A stretch of DNA of 46,840 nucleotides from Kiritimatiellia bacterium. Lineage in GTDB: Bacteria; Verrucomicrobiota; Kiritimatiellia; RFP12; UBA1067. The notes below the pieces were generated by a model that had not been told where the DNA came from, made no database searches, and was given only the letters and a program-made list of their open reading frames with translations. Below, one piece after another: positions 34,788 to 41,502 of the stretch (the stretch's first letter is position 1; each line of letters begins with the position of its first letter). The stretch is from NCBI GenBank assembly GCA_904502135.1, contig CAJGDE010000002.1, positions 1 through 46,840 of the forward strand, written 5' to 3'. The translations under genes were made by a program, and so were the position numbers.

Positions 34788-35294
34788 ATGTCTCATCCCC
34801 GCGTTAATAAACCGCGGGCAACAACCGTCAAAGCCGTTCCCGGTCAAGCTATGATTGAAACGGTTTTGGCGGTAGTTATTGTCACGTTTCTTTTTCTTGT
34901 GCTCTTTAGACTGTCGCAGATGCTTACGGGCAAAATAATGCTTGAGCATGCTGCGATGCGATCGGCAAGGGCCCGCACGGTTGGCTTTAATGATTTTATG
35001 TGCAAAAAGGCGGCTCGCGTGGCTATGATACCGGTTGCCGGAAAGCGTCTTTGGCCTGAAGGAGACGAGTTTGATTATTCCATGGAATTGGCGCGCATTC
35101 CCATTTATATGGGAACGCCCAATGGCGCTGTCGCTAACGGCGTTTTGGAATATGAAGCCTGGCATAGCCTTAAGATTGAACCGGGTGGCGGATATAATTC
35201 CCGTGTCAGCCTTAAGAATGAATGGTTTGATCTTGAGGGTGAGGCCACGATCGAAAAGAATTATCAATTGTATCTTACGGATCAGGGGCGATGA
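34788..35294 (+). CDS. TadE-like minor pilin/pseudopilin
   Basis: The N-terminus ...AVPGQAMIETVLAVVIVTFLFLVLF matches the TadE N-terminal pattern (GxxxxE followed by a hydrophobic helix). 168 aa. Starts 1 nt after the flp stop. Confidence 0.7.
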   Translation: MSHPRVNKPRATTVKAVPGQAMIETVLAVVIVTFLFLVLFRLSQMLTGKIMLEHAAMRSARARTVGFNDFMCKKAARVAMIPVAGKRLWPEGDEFDYSMELARIPIYMGTPNGAVANGVLEYEAWHSLKIEPGGGYNSRVSLKNEWFDLEGEATIEKNYQLYLTDQGR

Positions 35295-36676
35295 AAGCGA
35301 AAAGCGGGCAGATTGTTCTTTATTTGGTGCTTGTTCTCGTCGCCATAACTTTTTTGGCGGTGATGAATGTCAGCGCGTATCTGGGCGTTTCCGCTAAAAA
35401 TAAGACGATGAACGCTGGTGACGCCGCCGCGCTGGCGGTGGCAAAATACCAAGGTGAACTTTTAAATAAGATAGGGTCGTTAAACATAGAACATCTTAAG
35501 GCAGCGATAGAAAACGACGAAGAGAAGTGCAATTCGATAATGAAAGAAGTGCGCGAGACATGTTTTCTCGCGCCTCTTGAAGGGATACGCTTAGGCAACG
35601 AAGCTGCTAAAGCGAATGGAATTGAGATAGACGATAGGATGGGTCAGATTCTCAAGCAGCACGCAAACGACATACGTGTGCATTACGTTGTAACGCCTGA
35701 GTTGTACCCGCCCTTGTGGGAAGGCGCATGGGAAGAATATGCGCTTAGGCTTGAACTTGCTATCGCCTCCGGCGTTTATGCAGGTCCCGACAATATCGAT
35801 TTCGTAGACGCCGCCGGTGGCCATTTGCTTATGGTGGAGCAGTTTTACAATGCTATCGCCGGGCGCAATTGGTGCTGGTTTCATTTCAATGCACCGGGGA
35901 TTCTTGGCACATATTCAAGTTATCAAAGCTGGGATCCGCTGCCTTTTGCCGATCCTGAGAAACGCAGGCAGCGCTGCGCTAATAGTGAAGTATATTCGCT
36001 TAATTTAAATCCCCGTACAGGTAGCGCAGTGGATTTGCTGGGGACGAATCTCATCATGCGATTGACCGGATCTACGATTGAGGAATTGCAGAATTCTTAC
36101 ATAATTACAAATCAGAATCAGGTTTGGTATTTTTATGGTGATATGTGGAGGAAATGGTGGGAGATGGATCCTGATGGTGAGTGGCAGTTTCCCGTGGTGG
36201 GGCCTCCGAAAAAAGAATATGATGTAAGAGGCGCGGCTGCCGTCTGTAGGGTCACAAAGCTTATCCCCGATGTCATTTCAGATTCTAAAGGCCAAAAAAG
36301 CGTCTGGTCGGCGGCGGCAAAACCGTTCGGCACGGTCGAAAATCTTGATGGCGAAACGGATGTTGTGACGGCGCTAAGAAATTTTGTCGTTCCGTCTTTT
36401 ACCGACGCGAAGCTGGTGCCGCTTGACGCGGTCGGAGGCAAGGATCTTTCAACGGCCGATCCCGATTGGATGCTTCATGTAAGAGAGCATCTGCCTAAAT
36501 ATCTTGATGATGGGCCAGGCACGCTGCCGTCTTGTTATTATTGCAGTCAGCTTAAATTGTGGGAGCGTGATTATTTTAGACAGTCCGGCAGGAGATGGCT
36601 TAAATATAATTCCGACACATGCATAAGATCACACGGGCCGGGGCCCGCGCATGGAGGCACTCCTCATGGGCACTAA
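35291..36676 (+). CDS. TadG-like (Flp pilus-assembly TadE/G-like N-terminus) large pseudopilin with an uncharacterised C-terminal region
   Basis: MKAKSGQIVLYLVLVLVAITFLAVMNVSAYLGVSAKNKTMNAGDAAALAVA resembles the TadG N-terminal domain (hydrophobic helix followed by a DAAALA motif). The remaining 400 aa or so match nothing I recognise. The tail is His/Gly/Pro-rich (HGPGPAHGGTPHGH). ATGA overlap with the tadE-like gene. Confidence 0.6.
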   Translation: MKAKSGQIVLYLVLVLVAITFLAVMNVSAYLGVSAKNKTMNAGDAAALAVAKYQGELLNKIGSLNIEHLKAAIENDEEKCNSIMKEVRETCFLAPLEGIRLGNEAAKANGIEIDDRMGQILKQHANDIRVHYVVTPELYPPLWEGAWEEYALRLELAIASGVYAGPDNIDFVDAAGGHLLMVEQFYNAIAGRNWCWFHFNAPGILGTYSSYQSWDPLPFADPEKRRQRCANSEVYSLNLNPRTGSAVDLLGTNLIMRLTGSTIEELQNSYIITNQNQVWYFYGDMWRKWWEMDPDGEWQFPVVGPPKKEYDVRGAAAVCRVTKLIPDVISDSKGQKSVWSAAAKPFGTVENLDGETDVVTALRNFVVPSFTDAKLVPLDAVGGKDLSTADPDWMLHVREHLPKYLDDGPGTLPSCYYCSQLKLWERDYFRQSGRRWLKYNSDTCIRSHGPGPAHGGTPHGH

Positions 36677-36935
36677 GAAAGCTCAGGCTTTAATGGAACT
36701 TGCTGTCGGGATGTTTACGATAGCTCTTGTGGTAAGTCTTCTTACAGCTTACGCCATGTATATTGCCAAGAGCCTTAAAGCTCAGAACACTCTTAGAAGC
36801 GGCAATAGCGCATCGTCTTCATCAAAAAGCGATACCGTTGAGGTTGGAGAATTTGCGGGTGAACATCTTTTTGGCAAATCAAAACTTCAGATACGTGAAA
36901 AAGTAGTCATGCCAAGTACGGTGATAATCAAATGA
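36666..36935 (+). CDS. Second TadE-like pseudopilin
   Basis: MGTKKAQALMELAVGMFTIALVVSLLTAY has a basic leader, an xQxLMEL motif and a hydrophobic helix. The ATG at 36666 has GGAGG 8 nt upstream. The ORF track starts at 36651, which has no SD. Confidence 0.55.
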   Translation: MGTKKAQALMELAVGMFTIALVVSLLTAYAMYIAKSLKAQNTLRSGNSASSSSKSDTVEVGEFAGEHLFGKSKLQIREKVVMPSTVIIK

Positions 36936-37956: not shown

Positions 37957-38637
37957 TTATTTTGTCAGGCGCTCAATCGCTTTTGAGGCAAGAATCATAC
38001 CGAAGGTGGCGGTGACCTGTATGAGGCTGCCTTTGATTTCCTCCGTCTGTGATTGGCTCTTGGGCTCTTTTGACCAGACGGCATAAAAGCGTGCGGGTCT
38101 TAAGCCCAGTTTCTTGAATTTCTCTCTTAATGCCCGCGCCAGACCATCGCCGCATACTTTATCGAAAGGCGTGTATGTTATTTTGAGCGGATCGTGTCTG
38201 AAGGCTGCTCCCATACTTGAAATTACCGGTATTTTCGCAGCGAGAGATTTTAAGATGAGCTCGGCTTTGTTGGCTACGCTGTCTATTGCGTCTATGACAA
38301 GGTCGTAGCCTTCGATCTTTTCACTGATCCAGCGCCTTGGCTGCGCTATAACGTTGCACTTCGGCGCAACGTCTCTTAAGCGTTCCGCCAAAGCTTCAAC
38401 TTTGAGTCTCCCTATGGTTGAACGTGCCGCCTGAAGCTGTCTGTTGAGATTCGACTCTACGACAATATCGTCATCTATGAGCGTTAAGTTACCTACACCT
38501 GTGCGAGCGAGAGCCTCGGCGCACCAGCTTCCGACGCCGCCGACGCCGACTATGAGTACGTGTGCAGAGGCCAGCTTTCTCATGGCCCCTTCGCCAAGAA
38601 GCGCAGTTGATCTTGATTGTATTTCTTTTTCGTTCAC
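37957..38637 (-). CDS. tcdA: tRNA threonylcarbamoyladenosine dehydratase (ThiF/E1-like, TcdA/CsdL family)
   Basis: LASAHVLIVGVGGVGSWCAEALARTGVGNLTLIDDDIVVESNLNRQ is the ThiF-type Rossmann signature. At about 226 aa with no rhodanese or MoeB C-terminus, it fits TcdA. Confidence 0.8.
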   Translation of the reverse strand: MNEKEIQSRSTALLGEGAMRKLASAHVLIVGVGGVGSWCAEALARTGVGNLTLIDDDIVVESNLNRQLQAARSTIGRLKVEALAERLRDVAPKCNVIAQPRRWISEKIEGYDLVIDAIDSVANKAELILKSLAAKIPVISSMGAAFRHDPLKITYTPFDKVCGDGLARALREKFKKLGLRPARFYAVWSKEPKSQSQTEEIKGSLIQVTATFGMILASKAIERLTK

Positions 38638-39320
38638 GGCTTCAGGTAGAGTCTACAGTGACAAAGGCCTTTGAAGGTTTCGTCTGCGAGCTGGCCTTTG
38701 AATTCTTCGCAGGGGCAGAGGAATTCGGGCGTTTTCGGTATCCTACAGGGGCAATAACCTTCTTTTCTCTTTAGTCCGGAAAGAACGGCGGAGGTGATTT
38801 TCTCGTCTTTATTGTATGAAACGCGGTGTTTCAGCAAGAGCGCGACTTCTTCAGGAACGAGATCACTGAAATCCTCAGAGGCGGCAAGGCGTTTTCTTAT
38901 TTCGGTTGAGCTTTCTTCAGTGCGGGGATAAGCCTTAAATTCGCAAAGACTTTTCAGCTTGTCGATGTCTTTCCATCGGTCGAGGCCCGCTAAGGAGTCT
39001 TCTCCTATGATAAAAAAGATTTTCTCTGCTGGGTTTTCTTCTGATATCTCTTTTACCGTATCAATCGCATAAGATACGCCGCCGCGTTTGATTTCGCGTT
39101 CATCGACCGTAACCTCGGCTGTTGTGTTGAAGGCGGCTCTTAGCAGCAATGCGCGGTCATAGTCTCCATTGGGCGCATGATCGCTTTTGAAGGGGTTTAC
39201 GGATGCCGGTATCACATAGAGCTTTGAGAGGCCCAGATCTTTTATCGCGGCTTTTGCGATAGCGACATGACCATTGTGGACAGGGTCGAAGCTGCCTCCG
39301 AAAATACCGATTGCGCCCAT
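38634..39320 (-). CDS. nadD: Nicotinate-nucleotide adenylyltransferase fused to a C-terminal ferredoxin:thioredoxin reductase catalytic-subunit-like Cys module
   Basis: NadD motifs GIFGGSFDPVHNGH and SSTEIRKR occupy aa 1 to about 170. Aa 172-228 carry GYCPCR-x7-LCPC-x15-CHCRLY, i.e. the CPC/CPC/CHC triad. Confidence 0.88.
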   Translation of the reverse strand: MGAIGIFGGSFDPVHNGHVAIAKAAIKDLGLSKLYVIPASVNPFKSDHAPNGDYDRALLLRAAFNTTAEVTVDEREIKRGGVSYAIDTVKEISEENPAEKIFFIIGEDSLAGLDRWKDIDKLKSLCEFKAYPRTEESSTEIRKRLAASEDFSDLVPEEVALLLKHRVSYNKDEKITSAVLSGLKRKEGYCPCRIPKTPEFLCPCEEFKGQLADETFKGLCHCRLYLKP

Positions 39321-39334
39321 TTTTTTTTGCTCCT

Positions 39335-40126
39335 TTAAGCGAGTTCTTTTGAACGTGCCGCCGCCGCCTTAAGCGTTTCAGCGACGATCTTTTTGAAATC
39401 TGGGTTTGAGAGTTTTTCCATTCCGGCGGCAGTGGTGCCGCCTTTTGTGGCAACTCCCGCTATAAATTCGCCGAGATCAGGAGCGTTTTCTCTCAGATAT
39501 TTCGCGGTGCCGTACATCGTCTGCTCGGCAAGGAGCCTTGCTACTTCAGGTTTCAGACCGAGTTTTACGGCTCCTTCGGTCATCGCTTCTTGCATATATG
39601 CGAAATAAGCCGGTCCTGAGCCTGAAAGGGCGGTTACGGCATCGAAATCCTTTTCTGCGATGATCGCCGTAGCTCCTGCCGCCCCCAGGATCTTCTCCAC
39701 CTTCTTCACGTCCTTTTGCGTGGCGTTTTTCCCTGGAGCGATCGCGCACATTCCGGCATTTGCCCTGAGAGCAAGGTTCGGCATCACACGTATTATTTTG
39801 ACATTGGAGCCGAAAACTTTTTTGAGAAAAGAAAGTTTCTTTCCTGCGACAATGGATACGAGAGTTTGTGTTGATTTCAGAAGGGTCTTCGTTTCTTTCG
39901 CTACAGTTTCAACATCCTGAGGCTTTACCGATAAAAATATAAGTTTGGCGCATGAGGCCACTTCAGCGAGACTGTCTGTGACGCAGACTTGATATTTTTT
40001 TGTAAGTTCCTTCGCCCTGTCGCTGTTTTTTTCGGCCATTATCACTTTTGTTTTGTCAGGTATCGCCGAGAGTATGCCCTCGGCCATTTTGCCTGCACCA
40101 AAAAAACCAATATCGAATTTTTTCAT
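39335..40126 (-). CDS. proC: Pyrroline-5-carboxylate reductase
   Basis: Start at ATG 40126 (MKKFDIGFFGAGKMAEGI, a Rossmann GxGxxA). The track ORF extends to 40330, inside the dsbD-like gene. C-terminal motifs SGSGPAYFAY and GVATKGGTTAAG are present. Confidence 0.93.
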   Translation of the reverse strand: MKKFDIGFFGAGKMAEGILSAIPDKTKVIMAEKNSDRAKELTKKYQVCVTDSLAEVASCAKLIFLSVKPQDVETVAKETKTLLKSTQTLVSIVAGKKLSFLKKVFGSNVKIIRVMPNLALRANAGMCAIAPGKNATQKDVKKVEKILGAAGATAIIAEKDFDAVTALSGSGPAYFAYMQEAMTEGAVKLGLKPEVARLLAEQTMYGTAKYLRENAPDLGEFIAGVATKGGTTAAGMEKLSNPDFKKIVAETLKAAAARSKELA

Positions 40127-41364
40127 TTTGAATTTTCCTCTTTTTTTATTTCGTGATGTTCGCCGATAATCGCAAACGCCGGAAGGCCTCGGACATTTTT
40201 GAAAATCGGAATCGAGCGAAGATCGCGAAGATCTTCCGCCTGAAGTTTTATGACTGTATAATCTGAAAGTCTTTCTTTTACGCGTTTTTGAGAAAGGACG
40301 CCGTCCATCGCCGTGCAGTTCTTGCACCATGTCGCCCAGCAGTCTACGAGTATCGGGCGCTTCAGGTTCTCAAGAGAAAAAGTATCGGGCGTCATCGCTA
40401 TCTCATTGGCGTCAGTCTTAAGCGTCTTGCTGCTTGAGGAAAAAGATTTCACCCCAAGTGATATGTACCAAAAGGCAATGACCGCCATAAGAGAGGCGAA
40501 TATGCGGTTGACCCACACCATCCAAGCGCCAGGTCGCGGTAAAACCTTCATCCCCGCTCCCGCCAATGGCCATGGTGCAGCCATCCCGGCTCCCATTGCA
40601 AAGGGCAGCAGAATCGCGGCGAATGTGCCTTTTGAGAAGATGTCGGCCGTCAGTACAAGAACGGCGATAAGCACCGGAGCGACGCATGCTCCCGATAGAA
40701 TCGAAGCGAGTGCGCCCATGAGAAAAACGTAGAAAATCGCAAACTCCTTATCGCCGCGGGCGCGTGTTTTGCGGATTTTTGAAAAATCGATGTTGAATAG
40801 ACCAAATAGAGATGAGGCAAGAAGAAGAAAGATAATTCCGACAATTAGATTAAACCATGGGTTTGATTGTATGGTCCCAAAAGCAAGAGCGCCAAAGGAA
40901 GATGCAATTCCCATGGTGCCGTACGCAAGGGTCATTCCAAGCGCATAAACGAAGCCCCTCTTGGCTGACTTGCCGATGATTATGAGATTGATTGGAATCA
41001 TCGGCAGTACGCACGGAGTCAAGTTCATGGCCAGCCCCGCGAGAAACGCGAGAAAAAGAAGGATTATGATCGACGAGTCCGCTGTAAGATGTCCGAAAAA
41101 GTGAGAAGGGGTCTTTGCGTCTAAAAAGTCGATGAATCTGTCGGCGTTGACATATCCTTCAAGATAGCGTATGTCTTCTACATTTTTAGCTGGGGCTTTC
41201 AAGGGGGCTTCATCGATGAATGGCAATGCGCCGTCGCGTGGTTTGCATACGCCGTCTTCGCATACATACTCGACGCCGCCGATTGTAGTCGTATCGGCCT
41301 TCAGAGAGGCGCTTGCGAAAGTCATCGCAAGTATTGATAGTAGAATGTACGCCGTGTTTTTCAT
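40123..41364 (-). CDS. dsbD: Thiol:disulfide interchange protein, DsbD/CcdA-type membrane core with a C-terminal thioredoxin domain
   Basis: Signal peptide (MKNTAYILLSILAMTFASASLKA). The CcdA/DsbD core has LTPCVLPMIP and a second Cys in SGACVAPVL. The C-terminal thioredoxin-like region is ILVDCWATWCKNCTAMD (CxxC). I prefer the ATG at 41364 over the TTG at 41373 in the ORF track. Confidence 0.85.
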   Translation of the reverse strand: MKNTAYILLSILAMTFASASLKADTTTIGGVEYVCEDGVCKPRDGALPFIDEAPLKAPAKNVEDIRYLEGYVNADRFIDFLDAKTPSHFFGHLTADSSIIILLFLAFLAGLAMNLTPCVLPMIPINLIIIGKSAKRGFVYALGMTLAYGTMGIASSFGALAFGTIQSNPWFNLIVGIIFLLLASSLFGLFNIDFSKIRKTRARGDKEFAIFYVFLMGALASILSGACVAPVLIAVLVLTADIFSKGTFAAILLPFAMGAGMAAPWPLAGAGMKVLPRPGAWMVWVNRIFASLMAVIAFWYISLGVKSFSSSSKTLKTDANEIAMTPDTFSLENLKRPILVDCWATWCKNCTAMDGVLSQKRVKERLSDYTVIKLQAEDLRDLRSIPIFKNVRGLPAFAIIGEHHEIKKEENSK

Positions 41365-41399
41365 AAGTGCCAACTATTGTATACGGATTTTTCGCGTAT

Positions 41400-41408
41400 A
41401 TTATACCA
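41400..41408 (-). promoter_or_regulatory. Extended -10 element (TGGTATAAT on the minus strand) for the dsbD-proC-nadD-tcdA operon
   Basis: The reverse complement of 41400-41408 is TGGTATAAT. It lies about 36 nt upstream of the dsbD-like ATG. I found no convincing -35. Confidence 0.35.
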
Positions 41409-41460
41409 TTCTGATGTGCATATTGGTGATAAGATTTTACGGTGACAAGCCCAAAGTAAA

Positions 41461-41491
41461 TTGCCAAGTCCATTGGAATTTATGGTATAAT
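41461..41491 (+). promoter_or_regulatory. Promoter of argB-argD-gpmI
   Basis: TTGCCA at 41461-41466, a 19-nt spacer, and a TG-extended -10 TGGTATAAT at 41483-41491. The ATG at 41503 lies 11 nt past the -10, with no SD. Confidence 0.5.
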
Positions 41492-41502
41492 ATCAGACAA
41501 TT

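Follow-up and report, generated by a model that had tools for sequence, protein, structure and literature searches.

A NadD protein with a C-terminal FTR-type domain in gut Kiritimatiellia: a candidate ferredoxin-driven thioredoxin reductase in place of TrxB

Introduction

Ferredoxin:thioredoxin reductase (FTR) reduces thioredoxin (Trx) by means of a [4Fe-4S] cluster located beside a disulfide (PMC6006212, PMC3838966) and, according to PMC6006212, is found almost exclusively in photosynthetic organisms. In gut anaerobes, ferredoxin-dependent thioredoxin reduction is credited to flavin enzymes, the FFTRs (PMC10880999). The window studied here, a 46,840-nucleotide stretch of a Kiritimatiellia genome (contig CAJGDE010000002.1), raises the question of what an FTR-like module does at the end of the NAD-synthesis enzyme NadD. 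The first-pass annotation of the window had proposed a redox- or Fe-S-gated NadD.

Results

NadD and an FTR-like module share one ORF

A single ORF on the minus strand (38634-39320) encodes the 228-aa fusion protein (Table 1), which is the sole NadD match in the genome. The Pfam domain CTP_transf_like matches aa 6-144, and the NCBIfam NadD equivalog TIGR00482 scores 137.7 bits against a cut-off of 112.45. In the full-length AlphaFold model (pLDDT 87.5, pTM 0.84), aa 1-168 adopt the NadD fold, with S. aureus NadD (2h29) as the top match (Z 19.7, rmsd 2.3, 167 aligned). The fold, HxGH, K45, D108, W116, R133, and the SST motif are shared with the bacterial enzymes of B. subtilis (1kam/1kaq) and S. 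aureus (2h29), whereas the window protein has a deletion of about 18 residues before SST, carries Ala at the Thr85 position as its unfused relatives do, and is alone in this comparison in having an FTR tail. The compact form of NadD is common to fused and unfused members throughout the genus. In members of the genus, the Thr85 position (B. subtilis numbering), which bears on the preference for NaMN over NMN, holds Ala, Ser, or Thr, with Ala in most of them (window region 39066-39074, aa 83-85). One cysteine, C126, lies inside the NadD part; it is missing from most fusions with a short linker and found in many unfused NadDs, and no Cys of the NadD part is conserved across the genus NadDs compared.

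Table 1. Features of the nadD region of the window
Feature	Position	Strand	Basis or remark
TcdA-like ThiF-family gene	37957..38637	-	Overlaps nadD stop by 4 nt; frequent, not constant, downstream neighbor
Minimal FTR-catalytic-type domain, aa 165-228	38634..38828	-	PF02943 above cut-off; invariant Cys/His
NadD (nicotinate-nucleotide adenylyltransferase) domain, aa 1-164	38829..39320	-	TIGR00482 above cut-off and fold match
NadD motifs			HNGH 15-18, K45, SYA 83-85, D108, W116, R133, SSTEIR 137-142
proC	39335..40126	-	TIGR00112; usual upstream neighbor of nadD, fused or unfused
DsbD-like transmembrane and thioredoxin-domain protein	40123..41373	-	PF02683 and PF00085
Gap upstream of argB, 129 bp, mid-contig	41374..41502	.	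Without trxB here, unlike G081

The fusion had been proposed from this one sequence, and it is widespread. It occurs in 72 genomes of the genus. The FTR-like domain has matches in 309 proteins with lengths of 125-399 aa, and of the 120 matches listed, nearly all also carry the NadD Pfam domain; the best named records are gut Kiritimatiellaeota/Verrucomicrobia MAGs. Together with the invariant Cys and His residues described below, these matches indicate that the fusion is real; an assembly or read-through artifact or a chance occurrence would not recur across 72 genomes and in proteins from metagenomes by the hundreds.

The tail belongs to the FTR catalytic-chain family

The tail has the layout CPC(190-192)-x9-CPC(202-204)-x15-CHC(220-222), and the protein ends six residues past CHC; the ORF translation confirms the six Cys positions (190, 192, 202, 204, 220, and 222) and the x9/x15 spacing given by the first-pass annotation. 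A C-terminal module is present as that annotation had it, with the domain starting ten residues earlier, near aa 165 (nt 38828), which aligns with Met1 of stand-alone relatives. The FTR profile that had been named as a check, FeThRed_B (PF02943), matches aa 166-227 above its curated cut-off of 22 bits (25.7 bits, or 27.3 bits with the domain alone), and a search of the genome with it gave this tail as the only match (30.3 bits). In an alignment of 67 fusions, none of the six Cys varies, nor do H221 and R193, so that the Cys pattern is conserved in orthologues. Conservation is slightly higher in the tail than in NadD (66% vs 61%).

Structural comparison of the domain alone used a model of moderate confidence (pLDDT 69), whose weak fold matches were led by the FTR family (7pwe, Z 3.8; 4tpu, Z 3.7; 1dj7, Z 2.4; also 7bzk), with an rmsd of about 4 and Foldseek E values of 0.57-4. 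The best hit of a PDB sequence search with the domain was 7bzk at only E 7.2; a PDB search with the domain profile gave no match, and an ESM Atlas search no usable match. The profile match and the conserved residues support the assignment of the tail to the FTR catalytic-chain family PF02943.

Plant and cyanobacterial FTRs have the CPC...CPC...CHC arrangement of six Cys and a His in common with the tail, and the motifs of plant FTR (7bzk) align with it. The differences are that the tail has 64 aa against a chain of about 110 aa, that its loops are x9/x15 rather than the classical x16/x8, and that it is fused to NadD in non-photosynthetic gut anaerobes, where we propose it as the sole thioredoxin reductase rather than as a light switch. 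The 33-residue span from first to last Cys does equal that of classical FTR, as had been pointed out, although we take this to be a coincidence, x9/x10-14 being the usual spacing in phage relatives.

The best structural matches are the ferredoxin disulfide reductase (FDR) of M. acetivorans (PDB 4tpu) and a glutaredoxin/FDR fusion of D. psychrophila (PDB 7pwe), with 59 residues aligned and 24-27% identity to the tail. Like the NadD fusion, these are FTR-like domains of anaerobes joined to another domain, which in 7pwe is the redox module glutaredoxin and in our protein a nucleotidyltransferase. In the M. acetivorans FDR the partner domain is rubredoxin-like, again a redox module; in FDRs of the Methanosarcina type the FTR-like domain is followed by an additional metal-binding domain at the C-terminus (4tpu has 169 aa), and the window protein lacks such an addition.

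Distribution in the genus and origin

The tail was found in 72 of 97 genus genomes (56-93% complete), always in frame with nadD, and the remaining 25 had no copy detectable with the queries used. Among 24 genomes from other families of the order it was found once, as a stand-alone gene (G044). A record named Faecalibacterium sp. CAG:74 also contains a NadD-FTR fusion (L130:4491-5189), which is probably a misbinned contig or a case of transfer.

Fusions have either a long linker with the last NadD helix, as in the window protein, or a short linker from which this helix is deleted. The short-linker proteins form one clade of 18 members, in which the deletion brings the FTR domain close behind the ATP-binding SST helix. 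Short-linker fusions (L010-L025) measure about 212 aa instead of 228, and the FTR domain directly follows the SST helix.

An unrooted tree of these short sequences places the fused domains in a single clade (99/87), with 65-aa stand-alone proteins from gut Clostridia as its neighbors; this suggests that acquisition and fusion each took place once. From the same unrooted, short tree we infer that transfer went from a Clostridia-type stand-alone gene to the fusion, and proteins of this type are the likely source of the fused domain. GC and GC3 are similar in the NadD part and the tail, so there is no compositional sign of recent transfer.

Stand-alone relatives in Clostridia and phages

Gut Clostridia and their phages encode stand-alone FTR-like proteins of 65 aa that are 45-60% identical to the tail and have the same x9/x15 spacing. 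They differ from it in that their second motif is usually CMC or CIC instead of CPC, and in that they are unfused, often located beside trxA or nrdD/nrdG, and often found alongside TrxB in the genome. The family comprises 1081 clusters at 50% identity and occurs in hundreds of gut bacterial genomes and phages.

The following locus counts are descriptive only, since the loci are related and not independent. Among the best 80 bacterial loci, 28 contained a thioredoxin gene, which in 22 of these was within 50 nt of the FTR-like gene; in gut Clostridia the FTR-like gene is often just upstream of trxA, and the paired thioredoxin is of the WCGPC type. Among the best 80 phage loci, NrdD was present in 57, an NrdG-like gene in 45, and a small redoxin in 38, and the NrdD finger loop was of the CC type in 45 of the 48 that could be read. 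The CC finger loop marks thiol-dependent subclasses of class III ribonucleotide reductase (RNR). Reductants of these enzymes include thioredoxin and NrdH, and a ferredoxin disulfide reductase is cited for the Methanosarcina enzyme (PMC9176816). These gene contexts point to active disulfide reductases whose substrates are thioredoxin-fold proteins.

Modules of redoxin, nrdD, nrdG, and the FTR-like gene with a CC-type NrdD were seen in phage loci L062, L063, L070, and others in L047-L126, and also in a 185,683-bp record (L117). NrdG-FTR fusions are present in some phage loci. In two single records that could be read-through products (P0247 and P0286), the domain sits at the C-terminus of an acyl-ACP thioesterase and of a cNMP-binding protein.

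The tail and TrxB rarely occur together in the genus

A TrxB-family reductase was found in 2 of the 72 fusion genomes vs 22 of the 25 genus genomes without the tail, and TrxB-family matches occur in most other families of the order. Thioredoxin was present in all 35 fusion genomes tested. Fisher's test of tail against TrxB gives 1e-16, a value that overstates the association because there are only two independent contrasts on starred branches (three in all; sign test p 0.5). On the RpoB tree, the tail changed state at least three times, and in independent pairs the flavin reductase went opposite to the tail about 1.9 of 2 times and never in the same direction (two well-supported pairs; p 0.5). 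The exclusion pattern is strong but based on few events. Of three tail-less genomes with neither system (67-85% complete), G014 has an RpoB nearly identical to that of a genome with a reductase.

The window genome has one WCGPC thioredoxin (C72) and a small 2[4Fe-4S] ferredoxin (C62), and the TrxB active-site motif was not found in it. Its weak match to the TrxB profile (C25, E 5e-26) was rejected as TrxB, since the protein is a large flavoprotein with DAO/BFD/Pyr_redox domains. Of the two exceptions, the closest relative, G081, has the tail together with a canonical trxB; this gene stands immediately upstream of argB, and its contig is syntenic with the window. The other double-positive genome, G072, is a mixed bin whose trxB contig resembles the window clade. 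In the window, the place upstream of argB is a 129-bp gap in mid-contig, which favors a real absence of trxB at this position, although a copy may have escaped assembly. Two rpoB alleles were present in G072 (L284 and L309; 86.5% identical) and in G081 (L306 and L310; 93.7%), which marks both as mixed bins despite their low stated contamination.

Outside the genus, the exclusion is weak. TrxB was found in 29 of 50 genomes with the stand-alone gene and had no match in the other 21, some of which may be incomplete; in an even draw of Oscillospiraceae, it was found in 7 of 9 genomes with the gene vs 24 of 25 without (p 0.16).

Eight tail-less genus genomes encode a TrxB of 270-280 aa that keeps CxxC but no longer has either NADPH motif, GGG-type or HRRxxxR, a loss by which ferredoxin-dependent flavin reductases are recognized in Clostridia (PMC10880999; PMC6262447). 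The shortened TrxB is a probable ferredoxin-dependent flavin thioredoxin reductase of independent derivation. If it is one, ferredoxin would have taken over from NADPH as the reductant for thioredoxin by two routes in this genus, in keeping with the reading of the tail as an FTR. The shortened proteins (L245-L252, from G090, G078, G075, G066, G111, G074, G067, and G077) have a CLTC-type CxxC and a 24-aa deletion. G077 also encodes a 543-aa protein (L244, on C83) that combines a Clostridia-like TrxB with an AhpF-type thioredoxin-fold C-terminal region.

Discussion

Proposed function of the tail

We consider it likely that the protein is bifunctional and that, with its tail, a ferredoxin-driven thioredoxin reductase of minimal size took the place of TrxB. 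The N-terminal domain would be the cell's only NadD, forming NaAD from NaMN and ATP. In the tail, C190, C202, C204, and C220 would bind the [4Fe-4S] cluster, and C192 and C222 would form the redox disulfide adjacent to it, assisted by H221 as the catalytic residue; these roles follow from alignment to plant FTR and, in part, from the general assignments in FTRs. Two single electrons from reduced ferredoxin would open the disulfide, and the resulting dithiol would reduce the WCGPC thioredoxin by transfer, which could then serve clients such as DsbD. In this way, the tail would substitute for the NADPH-dependent TrxB. The domain would have been acquired once from a stand-alone gene of the gut Clostridia type and joined to the 3' end of nadD, whose essential function would guarantee constitutive expression of the tail. 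NadD and reductase activities would probably run in parallel and largely independently, as the tail tracks the absence of TrxB. We infer cluster binding, ferredoxin as donor, thioredoxin as substrate, and the independence of the domains; the mechanism is drawn by analogy with FTR (PMC3838966, PMC6006212). A predicted complex of the tail with the genome's thioredoxin scored 0.02, which we read as evidence neither way.

The gating of NadD put forward earlier, with the state of cluster or disulfide switching the adenylyltransferase and so tying NAD synthesis to ferredoxin or oxygen, would explain the retention of the fusion in 72 genomes, where it was never seen split, and it agrees with the slightly higher conservation of the tail, with a full-length model that is confident as a single unit, and with the proximity of tail and SST helix in the 18-member clade. 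As the main function we regard it as unlikely, however, given that NadD has no conserved Cys, that two very different linkers are tolerated, that close relatives make the same NadD without a tail, and that the module also works alone or fused to unrelated proteins (NrdG and, in single records, acyl-ACP thioesterase and a cNMP-binding domain). Gating also leaves the exclusion of TrxB unexplained. It could also operate secondarily, in addition to a reductase function. The boldest form of our reading, in which a self-sufficient FTR of 64 residues, about half the characterized size, displaced TrxB in a non-photosynthetic gut lineage and, by being joined to NadD, also ties NAD synthesis to the state of ferredoxin and thioredoxin, we hold to be improbable.

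A ferredoxin-driven disulfide reductase need not act on thioredoxin. The M. acetivorans FDR reduces an atypical redoxin and not a canonical WCGPC thioredoxin (PMC6262447), phage relatives are paired with NrdH-like redoxins, and there are few independent contrasts, so the substrate might be a redoxin, DsbD itself, or a small disulfide, the loss of TrxB then reflecting shared ancestry. We doubt this reading: no small redoxin was detected in the window genome with a phage redoxin query, bacterial stand-alone genes are paired with a WCGPC thioredoxin, and the thioredoxin of fusion genomes would be left without a reductant. The finger loop of the genus NrdD, moreover, is MGCR, the formate type, whether or not the genome carries the fusion, so this enzyme should need no redoxin (classes in PMC9176816); for the same reason we disfavor the host's own class III RNR as recipient of electrons from the tail. 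It is very improbable that the tail only stabilizes NadD, its six Cys holding zinc or a purely structural cluster. Such Cys could hold other metals, the loops are unlike those of plant FTR, and the domain-alone model is of moderate confidence, but, as in catalytic FTR, neither His221 nor Arg193 varies, the gene contexts are redox-specific, and unfused NadDs need no tail.

Novelty and significance

Both protein families are known, and a classification of FTR-like proteins was reportedly given by Balsera et al. in 2013. The papers searched, few of them from subscription journals, included none on a NadD-FTR fusion or on a phage mini-FTR, and no description of this architecture, of so small a size, or of an apparent displacement of TrxB by such a domain was found in them. 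The genus amounts to a natural swap experiment between NADPH-dependent TrxB, TrxB without NADPH motifs, and an Fe-S mini-FTR on NadD. The proposed function is specific and testable for a widespread, mostly unannotated 65-aa family and would account for genomes that have thioredoxin yet apparently no reductase. If true, this 64-residue tail would establish how small the catalytic core of an FTR can be.

Neighboring genes

In most loci checked, proC adjoins nadD. The DsbD-like gene, described earlier as part of an operon with nadD, is indeed adjacent in the window, but among the loci checked dsbD adjoins nadD elsewhere only in the closest relative, G081, and it lies on other contigs in all four of the more distant fusion genomes. 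A functional link of nadD and dsbD by gene order was therefore rejected, as the adjacency is not conserved; the DsbD-like protein is a plausible client of thioredoxin. On the plus strand of the window (34788-36935), three genes encode proteins with N-terminal hydrophobic pilin-like segments which, by eye, resemble TadE/TadG pseudopilins.
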